64,000 nt of DNA from an uncultured Alphaproteobacteria bacterium (GCA_963820775.1 CAWGBF010000013.1:168258-232257); one strand, 5' to 3'. Counted from the first letter of the stretch, positions 1 through 10,132 are shown. Notes: generated by a model not told the origin, from the sequence alone. Numbers and translations: made by a program.

Positions 1-1
1 C

Positions 2-238
2 TGCGCATGCGGCGAGGTACACCCGTCCGCGCTCACTCTCAGGCGCGGACGGTTCGCCTGTGGGAATTGTCTTGGCCGTGAGCGTGGAGCGAGAGAGGGC
101 CGATGCGCCAAATGCGGGAACATTGCACCACTTCAAGGACACCATGTGTTCGGCCGCGAGAACTCGGATGAGGTCGTGGACTGGTGCATCAATTGTCACC
201 AGAAACACCATAAAGGTCGGAAAACTAGGAATGGGTAG
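2..238 (+). CDS. HNH endonuclease / Zn-finger protein, 5' partial (absent from the ORF track)
   Basis: Frame 2 from the window start reads CACGEVHP...CGNC...CAKCGNIAPLQGHHVFGRENSDEVVDWCINCHQKHHKG...* (CxxC-HH-N-CxxCH-H pattern). Its TAG (236-238) overlaps the polB ATG (231). Confidence 0.72.
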   Translation, partial: CACGEVHPSALTLRRGRFACGNCLGRERGAREGRCAKCGNIAPLQGHHVFGRENSDEVVDWCINCHQKHHKGRKTRNG

Positions 239-3200
239 TCAGCCTCAAGAAATCTTCAATCCGGTCGTCGCCCGGCTCCGCGCCTTCTCCTGGCCTGACA
301 AAGACGTTGGTGGCCCCATAAAGCCCTTTTCCGAAACGGATGAGGAATTGCTCGTCTACATCTCAGAATGGGAGGACAACGAGCGAAAGGGCAAAAACGC
401 AAGGCAATATTGCCGCTTCCAGGGCGAACTGCAGCGCCGATACATCAAGCAGATTGCGGCCGCCATTCCTGAATGGGGAGCTTGGGGCGCTCGCACATGC
501 GTCCTCGACACAGAGACGCAGAACGTCGAAACGGGGCAGGCCATGCGCTTCGGCGTCGCCCAGATGCGAGGCTATAGCTACCATGAACTGATCGAATTCA
601 TGCAGCGTGAAAGCCGCCCACCTAATCGGGCCGAACTCGACACACTTCGCGAGGTCTACGTCTTCTACGACCCGAACATGATCGAAATCGATGCGGCCCT
701 CCGCGACGCCTCGCTTGCGCTATTGGAGACCGTGCGCAAGTCCCGTGAGGCCACGACGGGCATTCCTCACCATCTCGTCACGCGCGACCAATTTGTCGAG
801 GATATTCTGTTTCGCAATGAGCGGATCAAGGGCGCGGTCCCGATCCCTGTCCTAGTTTTGGGACACAAGCTCGACTTCGATCTTGAACGCCTGCCCGCAT
901 TCGGCGCCGGTATGGCAAAGGGTGATTTTTTCTACGGGGGATTTTCCCTCACCATGGGGCGAAGCGTCTTCAAGGGCGGCAAAAATAAAGGAAAGCCTAG
1001 CGGGCCGGTCATCCAACTCAAGAAGATAGGGCCTGGAAAAAACAATTACCGAGCGGTGAGCCGGTTCAACGCTCATCTTCATACGCATCAATTTGTCGAC
1101 ACGCTCATGCTCGCCAAGGCGCTGCTTGGGGCAGACACGCCAGGTAGCATGGATGCGCTCTGCGATCTGTTCAAGGGGCCATTGCCCAAAGAGGAAGTCG
1201 AGCACTTCAAGCCGCTCACCCGCGACTATGTGGAATACTGCCTAAACGATGTCGAACGGACATGGTTCATCTACACGCGGCTGCGCGAGCTTTACCAGCA
1301 GCATGGTCGGACAACGCCAATCTGGGGCTTGTACAGCGTCGCCTCGGTCGGAAAGGCCTATTACAAGGACTTCGGGATCGAGCCGTTCCTCCACAAAAAT
1401 ATGAAAGGCTCGGCGGCGAACAAGCTGAAGACCCTGAAGCTGTGTGGCGTGTCGATGGAAGCCATGATCGGCGCACGCGCGGAGTGCGGTATCCGTCATC
1501 AAATCCGCGAGGTCATCAACAAAGATTTCAAGTCCCAATATCCGACCATCAACATCAAGCTCGGCTTGCAGGACTTGCTGCTTGCAGAGCGCGTCGACAC
1601 TCATGAGGATGAATGCACAGCAAGCGGCGATTGGCTCAAGGGCGGCGAGGACGCCGCGTTCCTCGAAAGCGTCAGCATCCTCGATATGGATGATGGAGCA
1701 GGCGCTCCTTACATCTTCGGCGACCACGCATTGCTCGGCAAAGATAAGAGCCGGTCGGATAAGATGTGGCGACAATTGCTCGGCTTCGCGCTGATCGATC
1801 CGGCCGGAGCAATTCTTCCGCTGCGCACCGCCTTTCAAGACGCTGCCGACAATGATGACGGTAAAGCCTCGATCAATGTCGGTCTAACGGAAATAGAACA
1901 CGGCCCCGCTATATGGGTCACATATCTCGACGTTCTCGCCTCCAAGTTCCTGACCGGCAGGATGCCCCGACTTCTCAAGACCATGCGAATGGTCCCTGTC
2001 GGTCGCCAATCAAACCTGGAGAAAATCAGCTTCTTCGGCGACGCCGCCTATGAGATTGACTTGACGCAACCCGACGGCGACATATTCAAGCGCATCCTGG
2101 AAATGCGCGATGAGATCAAGGCGAAGATGAGTGATCTCGCCAAAGGAAGTCAGGAGTACAATCGGCTCAACGCCATGCAACTTGCGCTCAAGCTCATCGC
2201 CAACAGCACATCATACGGTGTCTTCGTGCAGGTCGATGTCGATGAGCGTGCAAAGCCGACAAAAATCTCAGTTCTTCATGGGACTGACGAGAGGAAAATC
2301 GTCGCCCGCCAAAGAACAAGAACTGATGACGGATCGCAGGAAGCATCCTCGATCAAGGTGGAGAAGCCGGGATCATGGTTTGCGCCGTGGGGGCCGTTGA
2401 TCACGGCAGGCGGGCGGATGTTGATAGCCATCGCAGAGACACTGGCGCGTCATGAGGGGCGAGCTTACGGCGGTATTCCCTATGGCATGTGCGACACGGA
2501 CAGCATGGCGTTCGTGCGCCCTGAGGCCATGCCTCGCGCCGAATTCCGCGCCGTCGTCGAACGCATCGGCCGCTATTTCCAGAGGATCAACCCTTACGCG
2601 TCAGTGAACGGCAAGGAGGTCGAAGTCTTTGCGACCGAGGACATCAACTTCGCGTTCACGAATGAGGGCGGCAAGTTCAAGATCGTCAAGCCGAAACAGA
2701 TGAAGCCGCTCTACATCCTGTCAATTTCCGCCAAGCGCTACGCCATAGCGAATATCGTCCGGCCGGACGGTTCGGACTATGACAGCCTCGAAGACCTTCA
2801 CGCAGACTGGCGCAACGCCGTCGTCATCCTGAGAAAGGTTTCCGCGCACGGCCTCGGTCCGATCACAGCGCCCGGCTATGCCTTGCCGCCCGACGACGGC
2901 GTTCATCTCGCCGTCCCGTTCAAGTACGGCGACGATGGCGAGCTTGTCTTGAAGGATGGCAAGCCAGTTCCCCTCTATAGCGAAGTATGCCACGGCAAGG
3001 GCAATGCCCGGCTTTTCCTCGACATGTGGAAGCGCGCATTTGAACTGTTTGTGCAACATGAAGGCCTGAAAACAGGCCGAGAGATTGCGCGCCTGATCGA
3101 AGTTGAAATGCACAAATGGCCAGGCCTCGATCAACCCCAGTTCAAGCAGCGATCCCTGAATACGTGGAGCCAGTTCAAGCAATATGGGAACCTGCGAAAT

Positions 3201-4661
3201 CGGCGGGCTGGAATGTTCTTCAACGTCCTTCCCGCGCCCCTTGACGCTGATTTTGGAATGGTCGGTCAATCGTTCGACATAGATCAATATTTCGGCAAGT
3301 CGCTTTATTGCCAAGGCGGCTCCGACATCAATGTCGTCAAACTGCTCGCTGAAGGCCAAGTATGGTGGCAGTCCGACAACGGGTCAGCCTCGAATTTCGT
3401 CGGCGAACATAAGCCCTATCGGCTGCAAACGGTCGCTGAAGCGATCGGCGATTATTTCGACCGGACGGAGTTCAAGGCAAAAGGGGAATACGGCAGGCTT
3501 GAACGCCACAGGGTAGCCGTCTCTCAGCGTGAATATGTGGGCAAGGAGACAAACTTCCTGCTGGACCCCGATCTGCCGGAGGATGATGAAACCCAGATTG
3601 AAGATGCTGCCGCCGCTCCATATTTTCGCTACGGTTTCAATCCGGTGTTGAGGGCTCAATATCTTGCCATTCCGGATATTGTCGAACTGCTTGATGTTGC
3701 GTCGCTCGATGCGCTCAAGGACATCCTGAACGGATATGCGCCATCCGATCATGCAAGGCGCGTCTTGGCGCATCTGCGCAAGGGAACGCGATACGATGAA
3801 CTAACAGGAACATGTGCGTTCGACAGCTTCATTCGTGAGGCCGATATAGCTGAGTGGCAGACGGCGCGTCTTGTCGACCTGGCGCGGCGTAGCTACCGCA
3901 AAATCAGCAAGGCTTGCGCCAACGTGAACCAGAAACCGCTTGTTGCGCTCGCTGCGCATTTCGGATTGCTTCCCAAACGCGATTATGATGCGTCACCCTT
4001 TGGTCAACACCATGATAGATTTGAAGAGAATTTAGCTCACGACCTGTTCAATCCGATGCTCTATCCCGACAAAGCAGCGGCCGTCATCAAGCTGGGTTTC
4101 GTGAGAGCGCGGTCGGGTCAGGAATTACGTGTGGACGAAGCCTTCGCCATGTTCGAAAGCTATCTCGGAATTGCGCAGCATAAAGAGCGCGCCGCAAAGT
4201 TCACGAAAAATCTCAATGTCGACCGCCGCGAACGGCGCGCTGCGCGGCGATTGCAGTCCAAGAAAATGTTGATGCAGGCAGTCTCCAAAATTCAGATGGC
4301 CACGCTAGACGATCATGTCCGGATGCTAAAGAAAATGTTTGTTGAAGATTACGGTTTTGATCCGGCCGACGTCGAGGAAAGCTCGCCGAATATCGTGAGA
4401 CTGGCGGTCTGTTGGCCGCTCGCTCATCCTGACTTTCAAATGCTGTTCCGCCGCCACACACAGACACGCCGGGCGCGACCCGAGATCAAACGCTTCGTAC
4501 ATGACTTGCTCGAACGTGCGACCGACCACGCTGAGCGCGTCAAGGCGCGAAAGCGCGTCCAGAAACGCCGCTCACGCATGAAACAGTCGCGCCAATTGAG
4601 AGACGGCAGCGTCCAAGTCGGCTTGGGAGATGGCGACGGCGTTAAGGAACTCGACGCTTAA
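231..4661 (+). CDS. polB: Family B DNA polymerase with 3'-5' exonuclease domain and long C-terminal extension (casposon-type)
   Basis: Exo I VLDTETQ, Exo II HKLDFDL, Exo III YCLNDV; pol motif A DFKSQYP, motif B KLIANSTSYG, motif C CDTDSM, and SAKRY. ATG 231 is preferred over the track's GTG 60 because it overlaps the HNH stop. Confidence 0.92.
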   Translation: MGSQPQEIFNPVVARLRAFSWPDKDVGGPIKPFSETDEELLVYISEWEDNERKGKNARQYCRFQGELQRRYIKQIAAAIPEWGAWGARTCVLDTETQNVETGQAMRFGVAQMRGYSYHELIEFMQRESRPPNRAELDTLREVYVFYDPNMIEIDAALRDASLALLETVRKSREATTGIPHHLVTRDQFVEDILFRNERIKGAVPIPVLVLGHKLDFDLERLPAFGAGMAKGDFFYGGFSLTMGRSVFKGGKNKGKPSGPVIQLKKIGPGKNNYRAVSRFNAHLHTHQFVDTLMLAKALLGADTPGSMDALCDLFKGPLPKEEVEHFKPLTRDYVEYCLNDVERTWFIYTRLRELYQQHGRTTPIWGLYSVASVGKAYYKDFGIEPFLHKNMKGSAANKLKTLKLCGVSMEAMIGARAECGIRHQIREVINKDFKSQYPTINIKLGLQDLLLAERVDTHEDECTASGDWLKGGEDAAFLESVSILDMDDGAGAPYIFGDHALLGKDKSRSDKMWRQLLGFALIDPAGAILPLRTAFQDAADNDDGKASINVGLTEIEHGPAIWVTYLDVLASKFLTGRMPRLLKTMRMVPVGRQSNLEKISFFGDAAYEIDLTQPDGDIFKRILEMRDEIKAKMSDLAKGSQEYNRLNAMQLALKLIANSTSYGVFVQVDVDERAKPTKISVLHGTDERKIVARQRTRTDDGSQEASSIKVEKPGSWFAPWGPLITAGGRMLIAIAETLARHEGRAYGGIPYGMCDTDSMAFVRPEAMPRAEFRAVVERIGRYFQRINPYASVNGKEVEVFATEDINFAFTNEGGKFKIVKPKQMKPLYILSISAKRYAIANIVRPDGSDYDSLEDLHADWRNAVVILRKVSAHGLGPITAPGYALPPDDGVHLAVPFKYGDDGELVLKDGKPVPLYSEVCHGKGNARLFLDMWKRAFELFVQHEGLKTGREIARLIEVEMHKWPGLDQPQFKQRSLNTWSQFKQYGNLRNRRAGMFFNVLPAPLDADFGMVGQSFDIDQYFGKSLYCQGGSDINVVKLLAEGQVWWQSDNGSASNFVGEHKPYRLQTVAEAIGDYFDRTEFKAKGEYGRLERHRVAVSQREYVGKETNFLLDPDLPEDDETQIEDAAAAPYFRYGFNPVLRAQYLAIPDIVELLDVASLDALKDILNGYAPSDHARRVLAHLRKGTRYDELTGTCAFDSFIREADIAEWQTARLVDLARRSYRKISKACANVNQKPLVALAAHFGLLPKRDYDASPFGQHHDRFEENLAHDLFNPMLYPDKAAAVIKLGFVRARSGQELRVDEAFAMFESYLGIAQHKERAAKFTKNLNVDRRERRAARRLQSKKMLMQAVSKIQMATLDDHVRMLKKMFVEDYGFDPADVEESSPNIVRLAVCWPLAHPDFQMLFRRHTQTRRARPEIKRFVHDLLERATDHAERVKARKRVQKRRSRMKQSRQLRDGSVQVGLGDGDGVKELDA

Positions 4662-5999: not shown

Positions 6000-6089
6000 C
6001 GCCGATGCGTGCATGCAATTGTGACCGGGTGGACCGGCTTGCAATGGTACGTCGTCGTGAGGAGTTTGGTTAGGTTATTGAGTCTCCCA

Positions 6090-9000
6090 ATGCAACATCG
6101 TCCTCCCGACCCCCGGTCCTTGACCGCGAGCGATTTGTCCAAGATTCTAAGAGAGACAGAAGGACTAAAGCTTGAGTTTAAACTAGAATACGATCTCTCA
6201 GGGGGGGCCGGTAGCGAACAACGAAAAGGTGAGTTTGCCAAAGACATCCTTTCGCTCGTCAACACGGCAGGGCGAAACGCTTTTGACTTTGCCTATATGG
6301 TGATCGGAGCTGGAGATAAGATACAAGCGGACGGCAGCAGGCTTCGCAAGTCGATATTGTCCGGCCAGTATACATCTCCATTAGTACTGGACATCGTAAA
6401 CGCCTCCTGCGCTCCACAAATCAAAGAGATGATAATCACTGAAATCGAGGTCGATGAGACGCTGTACTGTGTTATCGTATTACCTCCGTCACCTCAAATC
6501 CATAGCTTCTCTAAGAATATCGTTACCCCGAAGCGTACGTGGCAAAAGAACGCTGTTCCACTTCGCAGCGGTGAGGGAGTTATTCTAGCGTCTCCAGACG
6601 ATCTATTTCTGATGCAGAAACAGAAGATGGCTTCGATTCTAACAGACGAGGCTGACGATTTCGAAAACATTGTCCCACTTTTTGCGAAATATACTCCCAC
6701 TCCCCTGCCATCCGGCATTCGTGCGAAGCGCGCCGTAAGCCAGCTCTTAGCGTTTTTGAATCCGCGGCCGCATGACGCAGGCGTTGTAGAGTCGACTAAA
6801 GATTTTTTGGGTCTGCTTCAGCAATACCGGCATATCGCACTGGAAGGGTCCTCGGGATCCGGAAAAACAACAACGCTGCGCCAGATTGAGACGTCGTTAC
6901 TCAAACGTGGGACTTCTGACTCTCCACCTATCCCACTTCGTATAGACATTGATGATTGGATCGCAGCGGACATTCCATTCCACATTTGGCTGCAGAAGTA
7001 CCTCTTAAAAAGAGGACTGAGCCACCTACCACTATCTAAATTCGCGTTGCTGATTGACGGCATTCAAGAGTTCGATACGGCTCAACCAAGCTTTACGCAC
7101 GATTTGATCCGCGGTATTTCAGATAAAGTGTCAGATATATGTTGTATAGTGACGGCACGGTCGTTCCCGCTCGAGGGCATGCCCTCCGATTTTTTGGTGG
7201 CGCGGCTCGAACCATTGTCGGGGACGCAAACTAACGTCTTTGTCGACGCTTACTTGGAACCTTCGCTCGCCGAGGAGTTTCGTAGTTGGCTTTCGCGATT
7301 TGAAATTGCGACGACCGCGACTCGACAATTATTGGAAGACATCGTTCGAAATCCACTTCGCCTTTCAATTTTGTTGAGCGTCTACGCAGTTGAGCGGGAG
7401 AAAACGCCTCGCGCCCTGGGTCAATTGCTACTGCAGTTCTTCACTATAGTCTGCGAGCGAGAGAAAGCCTTTCATGGGTTTGTCGACGTGACACTCGACG
7501 AAATTATTGAGTGGCTTGCTCCTGCTGCATTGAAGATGCTCGCCAACCCTAAAGTCAGTAGGGTGCTGCTGGAGGCACCGAGCGAACGAGAGAGAGTTTT
7601 AGGGCGACTTTTGGTCGGGTCGGAAATTATTTCAGCTATCGAGGAAAGGCCGGGCATCAACGTAAAATTTTGTCATACTCTTGTACGCGATTTTTTTGCC
7701 GCCCTTAATATTGCGAGACACCCAGAGCTTTTACAGAGAGGACTTCATCCTCCGAGATTTAAAAACGGAAGCCGGACCGTTAGCCCATGCGATGAGGTTC
7801 TGCTCCTTTTATCCTCCCTCGAAAACGCGCAGGAAGTTTTCCAGAAGGCCGCTAGTATTGACCCTCTAATTGTTTTAGAGTTATCCTCAACTGTCACTGA
7901 GGACGTAATCGACGGATCCGTTATTAAATCAGCCTGGACTAGTCTTTGTCTACTTCTGACTCATAAGACGAACGTCGTACGCACCCTCGCGCTTGAGCTA
8001 TGCCGCAGGCGGGCTGTACGACTTAGAGAGCTGGTCCCCGCTACTTACGCAGAAACCCACAATCCCGCATTGCGAAAGGTGTGCCTCCAGTTGGCGTGGT
8101 ATGCGAATGACGCGGAGAGCATCAAACTTATATGTCGCGCAATCTCTGATCAAAACAGAACTGTGCGAAGGTTAGCGCGGGACATTTTTCTTGGAATAGC
8201 CAACGAAGATCACGCGGAGGCAGCTCGCATCGCGAGAAACGTTGTCGATAGTCTTGATCGTGAGGAGCGTGACTTTTGGCGATCTTCCTTCGAAACGGTG
8301 GGAAACCACCTTAGCGATGAAGGGAGGAGATCTTTTTCTGATCTAATTTCGAATGTGGCGAGCCGTGACGTATCGGACGACTTTTCTAGCGTGTGGTGTT
8401 CTGGAGAGGCTCGTGAATCTCATAGTCTGGACGTAGACCAAAGCTCTGCGGAATTTATAGCCCTAATTACACGGCTAGGTTTCTGCGACGCTGATGACGC
8501 TGTCCAAGTCTTAGCCAAATTAAGGGATTTTGCAAATTCATATCTAAAAGAAGTTCATTTACTGGCAAAGTCAGGCAATCCGGTACTTGCGCGCCGACTG
8601 CCACGGCTAATGTCGTATGCCCAAGATCCAAGTTCAGTCGACGTTCTCTTTCGGCTCTTGGAGGTCGATGACTTAAGGGTAACCATGCATGTATTGAAGG
8701 CTCTATCTTCGTTTCGTAGATCGGACATAGCCGAGCGCGTTCGTGTATATTGCTACATCGCTGATCACCAAGTGAGGCTTCATGCTGTACGCGTTATGGC
8801 TAATCAAGACCACGTTGACGAACAGTTTTTGTTGAACTTTCTCTCGGATCGGCATCAAGAGACTCGTCGTGCGGCTGTGGTAGCGCTTGGACGAATAGGC
8901 AATGATGAGTTTGTAGTGCGGTGCTTGGACTTGCTAATTGATCCCGATGAACACGTAAGGATGGCGGCGTGTCGGACAGCCGTCCGAGCGGGACCGAAGG

Positions 9001-9347
9001 CGGTGCCACGGCTTACGTTGTGTCTGATGGGCGACGAGAGCGATCAAGTAAGGCGACGGGCGCTATTAGCTCTTTTCGAAGTCGATCCAGCTGAAGGAAG
9101 AAGAAAGGCCGTAGATTTTTTCTTCGATCCGGATACGCCAGATATATTGGCGGGTACCGCGTTAGCCCAACTTTTAGCGTTCGCGACCGGGGAGTTTCAA
9201 GAACATCTTCTGGCTTTTGGCGAGGTGCGGACGGGTAAAAGCGTAACAAAGGCCATCAGGGAGTGGAAAACCTCAAGAGACCCGGGCGGAGACAGCCTTT
9301 TTGCGGACCGCGGCAATGCCGGGACCCAGGGGCCCTCCAAAACCTGA
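6090..9347 (+). CDS. AlbA_2/Schlafen - NACHT-like STAND NTPase - HEAT repeat protein (putative anti-phage NLR-like protein)
   Basis: N-terminal EGLKLEFK...KDILSLVNT...MVIGAGD (Schlafen/AlbA_2); Walker A GSSGSGKT; Walker B-like LLIDGIQE; IVTAR; C-terminal HEAT-like repeats (VRRAAVVALG, VRMAAC, VRRRALLAL). Visibly AT-richer than the host genes. Confidence 0.8.
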   Translation: MQHRPPDPRSLTASDLSKILRETEGLKLEFKLEYDLSGGAGSEQRKGEFAKDILSLVNTAGRNAFDFAYMVIGAGDKIQADGSRLRKSILSGQYTSPLVLDIVNASCAPQIKEMIITEIEVDETLYCVIVLPPSPQIHSFSKNIVTPKRTWQKNAVPLRSGEGVILASPDDLFLMQKQKMASILTDEADDFENIVPLFAKYTPTPLPSGIRAKRAVSQLLAFLNPRPHDAGVVESTKDFLGLLQQYRHIALEGSSGSGKTTTLRQIETSLLKRGTSDSPPIPLRIDIDDWIAADIPFHIWLQKYLLKRGLSHLPLSKFALLIDGIQEFDTAQPSFTHDLIRGISDKVSDICCIVTARSFPLEGMPSDFLVARLEPLSGTQTNVFVDAYLEPSLAEEFRSWLSRFEIATTATRQLLEDIVRNPLRLSILLSVYAVEREKTPRALGQLLLQFFTIVCEREKAFHGFVDVTLDEIIEWLAPAALKMLANPKVSRVLLEAPSERERVLGRLLVGSEIISAIEERPGINVKFCHTLVRDFFAALNIARHPELLQRGLHPPRFKNGSRTVSPCDEVLLLLSSLENAQEVFQKAASIDPLIVLELSSTVTEDVIDGSVIKSAWTSLCLLLTHKTNVVRTLALELCRRRAVRLRELVPATYAETHNPALRKVCLQLAWYANDAESIKLICRAISDQNRTVRRLARDIFLGIANEDHAEAARIARNVVDSLDREERDFWRSSFETVGNHLSDEGRRSFSDLISNVASRDVSDDFSSVWCSGEARESHSLDVDQSSAEFIALITRLGFCDADDAVQVLAKLRDFANSYLKEVHLLAKSGNPVLARRLPRLMSYAQDPSSVDVLFRLLEVDDLRVTMHVLKALSSFRRSDIAERVRVYCYIADHQVRLHAVRVMANQDHVDEQFLLNFLSDRHQETRRAAVVALGRIGNDEFVVRCLDLLIDPDEHVRMAACRTAVRAGPKAVPRLTLCLMGDESDQVRRRALLALFEVDPAEGRRKAVDFFFDPDTPDILAGTALAQLLAFATGEFQEHLLAFGEVRTGKSVTKAIREWKTSRDPGGDSLFADRGNAGTQGPSKT

Positions 9348-9670
9348 ACTCCGCGACGCCGCTAAAGGGGTAGAACTCGCGGCAAAGTTCCTCGTCGGCT
9401 TTAGCAGTGGAGGATGGGCTGCTCCTCGCGCAATTCTCCCGCACCGAACGACCGCAAACGGGATGGCCAATATTTGTTGTGATTTTAAGCGGCTAAGGTG
9501 GCGCGCGTCGTAGTATTGTTTATGTATTGACGGAATTAGTTGTAGCAACTCAGTAGGCCGCCCGAAACGTGAGATCGTGCGAAAAAGCCGACGCAGGCGA
9601 GGGTGAGCTTCAGAAAAACAACATGTCGCCGAAAACGGTGGACTGTCCCGGCATCCTTACTTAGGGCTAT

Positions 9671-9720
9671 TTTGCTTGGATTTGTTTGGTCGGGCTTGGT
9701 CTGGCTTGGATTTGTTTGGC
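9671..9720. repeat. Tandem array of five degenerate 10-mers
   Basis: tttgcttgga tttgtttggt cgggcttggt ctggcttgga tttgtttggc. Confidence 0.7.
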
Positions 9721-9835
9721 AGGAACTCGCGCGTGGGTTGAATCCGGGGCTTCGCTCGGGACCGGCCCGCCGCTTGCCGCGACGTCGCGGTCGGCGCTTA
9801 ATGGCGGCCGATCGAGCCCGCGAACGGAGCCGCCC

Positions 9836-10132
9836 ATGCCGTCACGACCGAAAGCCAGCCCCCATGTCCATATCTCGGAGCCGCATGTGCGGGTCACCGA
9901 GTGGAGGTTCGCGCCCGGGGCGGAGACGGGGTGGCACCGCCATGAGGCCGATTATGTCGTGGTCCCGCTCGCCGACGGCGACCTCATGCTCGAGGAGCCC
10001 GGCGGCGGCTCGCGCACGACGACGCTCAAGCGGCATGTCCCTTACGCCCGCCGCGAGGGCGTCGAGCACAATGTGGTCAACGCCAATCTGTTCGATTACG
10101 CCTTCATGGAGATCGAGCACCTGAAGCCGTAA
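9836..10132 (+). CDS. Cupin domain protein
   Basis: VRVTEWRFAPGAETGWHRHEADYVVVP...GVEHNVVN cupin motifs; ATG 9836 chosen as start. Confidence 0.85.
   Translation: MPSRPKASPHVHISEPHVRVTEWRFAPGAETGWHRHEADYVVVPLADGDLMLEEPGGGSRTTTLKRHVPYARREGVEHNVVNANLFDYAFMEIEHLKP

Follow-up and report, generated by a model that had tools for sequence, protein, structure and literature searches.

This analysis concerns polB, the gene of an oversized family B DNA polymerase (PolB), and the casposon that carries it in an uncultured Alphaproteobacteria bacterium (GCA_963820775.1). The window, i.e. the whole stretch of DNA analyzed, is 64,000 nucleotides long (CAWGBF010000013.1:168258-232257, indicated below as C13:168258-232257); the borders of the element were sought in the whole genome. 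The element is a complete casposon: it features a stand-alone Cas1 and a PolB, terminal inverted repeats (TIRs) and a 14-bp target site duplication (TSD). A preliminary description, drawn from the sequence alone, had proposed an oversized PolB of about 1476 aa with a large C-terminal region, in a casposon, and the open reading frame (ORF), its motifs and the adjacent cas1 gene all agree with it. The features found are listed here by window coordinates and strand; structural features derive from AlphaFold2 (AF2) models.

1..238, plus strand: small gene for an HNH/zinc-finger nuclease, 3' part only; the complete ORF begins 70 nt before the window, and its translation contains CxxC...HH...N...CxxCHxxHH
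231..4661, plus strand: polB, 1476 codons and a stop codon; weak Pfam DNA_pol_B and exonuclease matches, Foldseek matches to PolBs
231..494, plus strand: N-terminal extension of 88 aa, a beta-hairpin with a conserved LRAF motif, then two helices (AF2 secondary structure)
495..1310, plus strand: 3'-5' exonuclease domain, with motifs Exo I, II and III and weak Pfam and PHROG exonuclease matches
1311..2741, plus strand: palm and fingers, with motifs A, B, C and K835RY837 and two beta-rich insertions
2742..3638, plus strand: family-wide C-terminal polymerase module (residues 838-1136), defined by conservation, ratio of nonsynonymous to synonymous substitutions (dN/dS) and AF2 co-folding
3639..3821, plus strand: putative diverged XRE/LacI-type helix-turn-helix (HTH) and beta-hairpin (residues 1137-1197), from AF2 models and transitive profile evidence
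3822..4592, plus strand: clade-specific basic alpha-helical extension (residues 1198-1454), from AF2 model, charge and database searches
4593..4661, plus strand: C-terminal 22 residues (1455-1476), predicted to be disordered (predicted local distance difference test, pLDDT, below 50), and stop codon
4572..5819, minus strand: cas1 (casposase), 415 aa, Pfam Cas_Cas1 (E 1e-25), convergent with polB
6009..9347, plus strand: cargo gene for a NACHT/STAND NTPase-HEAT protein, identified by Pfam, between cas1 and the right TIR
9623..9666, minus strand: right TIR; the element ends at 9666, ...GCATCCTTACTTAGGG
9667..9680, plus strand: 14-bp TSD, CTATTTTGCTTGGA; a second copy directly precedes the left TIR
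outside the window: left TIR, beginning 5791 nt before window base 0 (contig C13:162466) and pairing with the right TIR

The polB ORF is open from 231 to 4661 and translates into 1476 aa, followed by a stop codon; a public gene call for the same sequence, on a 441-kb contig, has equal length and an identical 1476-aa product. The frame is open upstream as far as the window edge. The ATG at 231 is taken as the start because the stop codon of the upstream HNH-like ORF overlaps it, and because homologues align from Met1. The HNH-like ORF ends at 238, forming with the polB start an 8-nt overlap, ATGGGTAG; the two genes are translationally coupled. A Pfam scan of the HNH-like ORF gave no significant match.

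The 1476-aa protein is a family B DNA polymerase, as indicated by both its motifs and its fold. When the whole protein was scanned against Pfam, NCBIfam, PHROGs and PDB sequences, only weak matches to motif B and to the exonuclease were obtained: Pfam DNA_pol_B (E 1e-4) covers motif B only, the weak Pfam and PHROG exonuclease matches cover residues 283-365, and NCBIfam gave no match. Both sets of motifs are complete. The exonuclease features Exo I (D93-x-E95), Exo II (H212KLDFD217) and Exo III (Y336xxxD340); the polymerase features motifs A (D432FKSQYPT), B (K654LIANSTSYG663) and C (C754DTDS758, in the context YGMCDTDSM, residues 751-759), along with K835RY837. All of them are conserved in 15 to 42 relatives.

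Motif B is one residue longer than expected, K654-LIA-N-S-T-S-Y-G663 as opposed to K-x3-N-S-x-Y-G. The additional residue, already pointed out in the preliminary description (NSTSYG, residues 658-663), is real and conserved across 42 relatives, where K654, Y662 and G663 never vary and N658 and T660 are nearly invariant. It is shared by a shorter type of relatives, of about 1050 aa (KILANATSYG), and is a signature of the family. Motif C, if taken as diagnostic, assigns the protein to the divergent casposon-type "CDTDS" PolB group. According to the available part of the paper describing it (Kazlauskas 2020, PMC7544198), the PolB_CDTDS cluster, named for its motif C, includes the PolB of the Aciduliprofundum boonei casposon and is related to the main and protein-primed PolB groups. 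The protein described here is similar in its C-D-T-D-S motif, in being encoded by a casposon and in resembling both main and protein-primed PolBs; the same part of the text mentions neither the extra motif B residue nor a long tail.

The fold was predicted by AF2 for residues 1-1200, with a pLDDT of 87.8 and a predicted template modelling (pTM) score of 0.88. Foldseek comparison of this model to the PDB gave 202 matches at E<=1e-3; every one of the 50 listed is a family B polymerase. phi29 DNA polymerase ranks first (E 1e-10; TM-score on the target, about 0.5), by a narrow margin over Pol alpha, archaeal PolBs and RB69. Unlike the fold search led by phi29, sequence profiles reach solved sequences of Pol alpha and of archaeal PolB, the matches running through motifs B and C.

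Similarity to phi29-type PolBs (PDB 1XHX, 2PYJ, 2EX3), the best structural match, extends to the layout of the protein. Since Exo I is found at residue 93 (38-53 in the short relatives, 9 in phi29), a large N-terminal domain is missing, as in phi29. In the AF2 secondary structure, a beta-rich insertion at about 454-610, between motif A and the fingers, occupies the position of terminal protein region 1 (TPR1), and a beta-rich insertion of 45 aa, directly after motif B (668-713), that of TPR2. Distances are larger than in phi29: 222 aa from motif A to B and 101 from B to C, compared to 134 and 73, while the part following K-x-Y amounts to 640 aa, compared to 77. When the family profile was aligned by hhalign to phi29 DNA polymerase, motif A alone was aligned, and no residue-level match to TPR1 or TPR2 was obtained.

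All the strings singled out in the preliminary description were located: SAKRY at 833-837, GRLERHRVAVSQREYVGKETN at 1088-1108, RRERRAARRLQSKK at 1332-1345 and RKRVQKRRSRMKQSR at 1440-1454, in addition to NSTSYG. The proposal that the catalytic core ends near SAKRY, in contrast, has to be abandoned, because the K-x-Y motif sits in the palm (PMC5695915), ahead of the position of the thumb. The following residues, 838-1136, are conserved to the same degree as the core, and the relatives of about 1050 aa align throughout them, including EYIGKESN. In 28 to 42 sequences, invariant or nearly invariant positions include RKxSxHGLG (868-876), CxGxGNxR (920-927), W933, F996, Y1075, E1080, K1082 and, within EYVGKETN, G1104-K-E1106. 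When compared to the two closest orthologues, dN/dS is 0.07-0.11 for residues 841-1080 and reaches its lowest values, 0.03-0.04, for residues 1081-1140. Residues 838-1136 and the core form one confident body in the 1-1200 model.

The behavior of the last part of this module depends on the model. Residues 1081-1136, which contain GRLERHRVAVSQREYVGKETN, are disordered when the tail is modelled by itself (pLDDT 33-41); when the core is present, as in the 1-1200 model, residues 1081-1110 become ordered (pLDDT about 89-92), and residues 1094-1103 form a strand. This suggests that residues 1081-1136 may act as a latch, docking onto the polymerase core.

Residues 1137-1197 are predicted by AF2 to form four short helices (1138-1185), followed by a beta-hairpin (1186-1197). 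The equivalent segment of the relatives of about 1050 aa is recognized as Pfam HTH_3 above cut-off, and the segment of the long type aligns to it in register; by hhalign, the profiles of the two types match with a probability of 76% (E 2e-5). The short-type profile, in turn, matches solved LacI, XRE and HigA HTH domains, with E values from 1.6e-7 to 1e-3. The segment is therefore described as a putative diverged XRE/LacI-like HTH. A C-terminal HTH had already been annotated on casposon PolBs, as in the "PolB-HTH" NAL212_0249 (Krupovic 2014, PMC4046053). When the tail was compared by BLASTP to the Cas1 of the same element, nothing significant was found (E 0.05); a shared HTH, a feature of family 2, was not found.

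The extension that follows is entirely alpha-helical in the AF2 model, with long helices at about 1314-1357 (44 residues) and 1419-1454 (36 residues), in agreement with the long, basic, helical tail anticipated in the preliminary description. Its net charge is +16 or +17, with a pI of about 10: residues 1201-1476 score +17 and pI 10.1, and the last 156 residues (1321-1476) reach pI 10.7. All of 12 related tails are basic (pI 8.8-10.8, net charge from +3 to +20), with a mean column identity of just 31%; the conserved columns are mostly Arg or Lys, and residues 1196-1476 lack any conserved Ser, Thr or Tyr. The preliminary description had counted about 600 uncharacterized residues after the core. 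Of these, about 300 (838-1136) belong to the family-wide module and about 60 (1137-1197) to the putative HTH, of a kind already known from casposon PolBs; for the remaining 280 or so (1198-1476) the statement holds.

Database searches did not assign these residues. Pfam gave no match for residues 840-1476, nor did tblastn against plasmid and phage collections. In the Foldseek comparison of the tail model, rows for BAR-domain and tape-measure proteins were discarded as long-helix noise. A phmmer search with the tail among 1.84 billion representative proteins gave 76 matches, all to the same polymerase family or to contig-edge fragments, indicating that the tail is absent from other protein contexts; for the extension itself, the only matches are proteins with high similarity to the query. 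A candidate beta-clamp-binding motif, of the type of PCNA-interacting peptides (PIP), was rejected, because the only pattern match sits inside the motif B helix. In five of 12 related tails (P0018, P0019, P0020, P0021, P0024), a hydrophobic 19-mer resembling a transmembrane segment is present (Kyte-Doolittle 1.8-2.7), flanked by basic residues and aligned to about residues 1385-1400 of the query; the query (Kyte-Doolittle 1.0) and its closest relatives do not feature it. A membrane-anchored casposon polymerase would be unusual.

The length of the protein, unusual among PolBs, raises the question whether the ORF is an artefact, in which polB was fused to a separate downstream gene through read-through, a frameshift or an assembly join. 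The genome is a 17-contig assembly, the closest database relatives are metagenome-assembled genomes and many database relatives are fragments. Yet the single-ORF architecture recurs in independent assemblies, where full-length relatives of 1422-1702 aa, 32-85% identical, keep the tail. The short, apparently stand-alone matches turned out to be contig-edge fragments, one of which begins inside motif C. In comparison with the two closest orthologues, residues 1-840 have a dN/dS of 0.11 and residues 1141-1476 one of 0.17-0.20, pointing to purifying selection on the tail in the polB frame. When ten related loci, short-type casposons included, were searched with a profile of the last 280 residues, no separate ORF was detected, and the origin of the tail by gene fusion was rejected on this basis. 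The probability of an artefact is therefore negligible: the tail, which the preliminary description had left exposed to this doubt, is conserved among homologues. The long type is found in only 4 of 185,579 species-representative genomes, all four from uncultured soil Alphaproteobacteria.

The gene downstream of polB is cas1, transcribed convergently. The Cas1 of a short-type casposon matches its product with 27% identity (E 1e-23). Over 90 nt (4572-4661), polB and cas1 share the same DNA, the final 30 codons of each being antisense to those of the other; the C-terminus of Cas1 looks helical. Convergent 3' overlaps recur in relatives at 36-85% identity, measuring 87 nt in L003, 105 nt in L017 and 156 nt in L018. 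Such an overlap is retained at identities as low as 36-40%, and the convergent gene was confirmed as cas1 in L003 and L017. Cas1 adjoins polB in L003, L005, L017 and L019, while in L018 the convergent overlapping ORF is cut by the contig end. The overlap may represent antisense or transcriptional-interference coupling, or simple compaction. It also confounds the conservation of the C-terminal PolB peptide: since the last 30 codons are antisense to cas1, the recurrence of this peptide in close relatives may reflect constraint on cas1.

The casposon is 15,458 bp long. Its TIRs are imperfect, with 42 of 44 positions identical, and start with CCCTAAGTAAGGATGC; a weaker similarity continues inward. 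When the flanks are joined through one 14-mer, the result is equivalent to an empty site: some 30 intact copies of a dispersed repeat of about 130 nt align with it colinearly across the junction (82-91% identity). This fixes the borders exactly and shows that the casposon was inserted into one copy of this repeat. Within the window, the element has a GC content of 0.50-0.60, and its surroundings one of 0.62-0.68. In related genomes, the polymerase finds only weak partial matches, in 3 out of 40. Among the element ORFs scanned, neither cas2 nor a CRISPR array was found, repeat searches having returned only the TIRs, without a dedicated CRISPR scan; clamp, helicase and primase genes were likewise not identified in the ORFs scanned.

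Taken together, these data are best explained by considering polB as the replicative PolB of an intact, recently inserted bacterial casposon of 15.5 kb, probably tethered to DNA by its HTH and basic helices. We assign to this reading a probability of about 60%. The data establish identity, anatomy and conservation of the protein and the borders of the element, and the mechanism is deduced from them. The near-invariant E-Y-x-G-K-E strand would latch the module at the thumb position back onto the core. The HTH and the basic helices would both bind DNA: the HTH might recruit the polymerase to DNA of the casposon, with the TIR ends as the most plausible site, and the helices might add non-specific affinity, standing in for a clamp. 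The insertion at the TPR2 position and the latched thumb module would provide clamp-independent processivity and strand displacement, and a single polypeptide could then copy the element processively, displacing one strand. We infer DNA binding from the basic character, kept in 12 of 12 tails, with conserved columns mostly Arg or Lys; it is also suggested by the lack of a clamp-binding motif and of clamp or helicase genes in the scanned element ORFs, along with the TPR2-position insertion. Binding of the tail to an origin or to DNA, one of the functions advanced in the preliminary description, is made plausible by the HTH and by a basic character kept across relatives; recognition of the ends and processivity are likewise proposed.

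Several results weigh against DNA tethering. The long-type HTH profile, used alone, does not reach solved HTH domains, and for the long-type clade the assignment is only transitive. The profile of residues 1196-1476 finds no match among PDB sequences and Pfam; the tail model, compared by Foldseek to PDB and BFVD, finds nothing at E<=1e-3. No structural analogue connects residues 1198-1454 to DNA binding, and the hydrophobic 19-mers hint at a type of tethering other than DNA binding in part of the clade. The latch and the TPR2-like geometry are predicted from secondary structure and from the contrast in pLDDT. Similarly, the putative thumb is identified by position and co-folding, since the tail-only model, which includes residues 838-1136, has no significant fold match in the PDB by Foldseek.

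The long helices of 36 and 44 residues, and a composition kept in spite of poor sequence conservation, as is typical of scaffolds, may also be seen as an indication that the extension mainly serves protein-protein contacts, as a scaffold or tether to the casposase, a partner also suggested in the preliminary description, to the HNH protein, to the host replisome, to a second polymerase in a dimer or, in relatives, to the membrane. The pairing of polB and cas1 with overlapping 3' ends, conserved throughout the clade, and the hydrophobic segment found at the same tail position in five of 12 relatives would fit such a role. The tail, however, shows no similarity to Cas1 or to known interaction domains and has no clamp-binding motif, the query does not contain the hydrophobic segment, and a strong positive charge beside an HTH is better explained by nucleic-acid binding: a scaffold is, on balance, unlikely, although it deserves consideration.

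A priming role of the tail had also been put forward. The extension could work as a terminal protein (TP)-like module attached in cis to the polymerase, or contribute to primer-independent initiation at the TIR ends, not requiring a host primase. The element does possess TIRs; the layout is phi29-like, without a large N-terminal domain and with insertions at the TPR1 and TPR2 positions; phi29 DNA polymerase is the top Foldseek match (E 1e-10); and size and helical character of the extension are roughly those of phi29 TP. Against this, the Foldseek scores of Pol alpha and archaeal PolBs come close to that of phi29, and these are the ones matched by profile-to-sequence comparison. Homology to phi29 TP was rejected at the sensitivity of hhalign, which gave the tail profile a probability of 0.3%. 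Within residues 1196-1476, none of the hydroxyl residues (Ser, Thr, Tyr) is conserved, and the tail is strongly basic, while a priming domain must mimic DNA in the polymerase tunnel. To our knowledge, known fusions of TP and PolB are N-terminal. A TP gene or a TP-like domain was not detected; a divergent TP is possible, as the small upstream ORFs have no Pfam assignment. A priming module in the extension is thus very improbable, and the priming function proposed in the preliminary description finds no support in the comparison to phi29 TP.

As previously stated in that description, the mode of priming cannot be read from the motifs; it may be added that the layout is phi29-like and that the signatures of piPolB, the primer-independent PolB of pipolins, are absent. 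In piPolB, SxTTDG replaces motif C and KTRG replaces KxY, and the KH-x8-KTRG element matters for de novo priming (Redrejo-Rodriguez 2017, PMC5695915). The two systems are alike in that a PolB is encoded by a self-replicating bacterial mobile element without a primase gene. They differ in motifs, since CDTDS and AKRY are found here in place of SxTTDG and KTRG, and in integrase, a Cas1 instead of a tyrosine recombinase; identity to piPolB was therefore rejected, and the lack of its signatures also counts against a primer-independent start. An invariant K825-P826 pair is present in the query (K825-Y837 at 2703-2741), with K825 exactly 10 residues ahead of K835. The spacing equals that of the piPolB lysines preceding and opening the K-x-Y-equivalent motif: it is a resemblance only, to be taken as a lead in favor of priming in cis.

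A more daring proposal may be built on this lead. The clade could represent a self-contained replication machine, starting synthesis at the TIR ends without a host primase, where the HTH recognizes the ends and the extension, together with a palm element K825-x9-K835, acts as a protein primer in cis or stabilizes de novo initiation. We consider this rather improbable; if true, it would be a new solution to initiation among family B polymerases, beside the protein-primed and primer-independent types.

DNA tethering of a casposon-borne replicative PolB, the reading preferred here, can be set against known casposons. The bacterial casposons NitAL212-C1 and HenMar-C1 feature a 14-bp TSD, TIRs and an HNH gene followed by PolB (Krupovic 2014, PMC4046053). 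The PolB-HTH of these family 3 casposons (NAL212_0249 of NitAL212-C1 and the HenMar-C1 PolB) is similar to the protein described here: it is encoded right after a small HNH gene, carries a C-terminal HTH and belongs to elements with TIRs and a 14-bp TSD. This kinship is drawn through the relatives of about 1050 aa, rather than from the published sequences themselves. Such relatives share with the query every motif, the thumb-position module, E-Y-I-G-K-E and the HTH, and one of them has its genes in a HenMar-like order, with Cas1 followed by two small ORFs, a 121-aa ORF and PolB. Compared to the PolB-HTH type, the query is about 420 aa longer, because of an N-terminal extension of about 50 aa, bigger internal insertions and, above all, about 280 residues after the HTH. 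Its cas1 is downstream, convergent and overlapping the polB 3' end, while in the HenMar-like order it is upstream and divergent.

The C-terminal HTH of casposon PolBs and the CDTDS motif C are thus already known. What is new, relative to PolB-HTH and CDTDS kin, is the extension of about 280 aa following the HTH, the N-terminal extension with the larger insertions, and the convergent order of polB and cas1. The clade is small and known only from metagenome assemblies; the four members traced to genomes come from soil Alphaproteobacteria. In its polymerase, a phi29-like layout is joined to a motif B specific to the family, a conserved putative latch motif, a putative HTH and a unique basic extension; such an enzyme might represent a new scaffold for clamp-independent polymerases. 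No biochemical study of a casposon polymerase was found in the literature searched, and the way in which family 2 and 3 casposons prime and complete their replication is a matter of conjecture, a host primase having been suggested. Any processivity, strand displacement or end specificity of casposon PolBs would bear on how these elements, ancestors of the CRISPR adaptation module, propagate. If the tail were merely a non-specific DNA tether, the finding would be a modest extension of known casposon biology.

A few additional observations concern the element and its surroundings. The target repeat of about 130 nt, interrupted by the element, lies within window positions 9667-9880 and about 200 nt to the left of the element (C13:162252-162465). 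It contains the palindrome TCCAAGC-N6-GCTTGGA, and the 14-bp TSD is part of it; about 30 copies are found in this genome, many more in genomes of the same genus. As to cargo, the relative L017 (40% identical) carries an nSTAND1-LRR protein beside its polB module, and STAND NTPases are therefore suggested as recurring casposon cargo. Three overlapping frames on the left side of the element (L002:12711-14936; window -5289 to -3064) together encode an EcoRI-like adenine methyltransferase, whose last piece is fused to GmrSD_N (DUF262): it is probably a frameshifted cargo gene. To the left of the element, and adjoining it, an islet of very low GC content (0.45; L002:9494-11873) contains a TIR-domain protein (here the protein domain, not the repeat) and a fused BrnT-like/CopG-antitoxin ORF, and beyond the islet a urease alpha-subunit gene is found.

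Elsewhere in the same genome, three further sequences resemble genes of the casposon: a second polB-like sequence, frameshifted and 28-38% identical (C2:92195-93743), a second Cas1-like gene, 25% identical (C2:324219-325133), and an isolated 43-aa copy of the N-terminal module of the casposase, 65% identical (C2:224329-224457).

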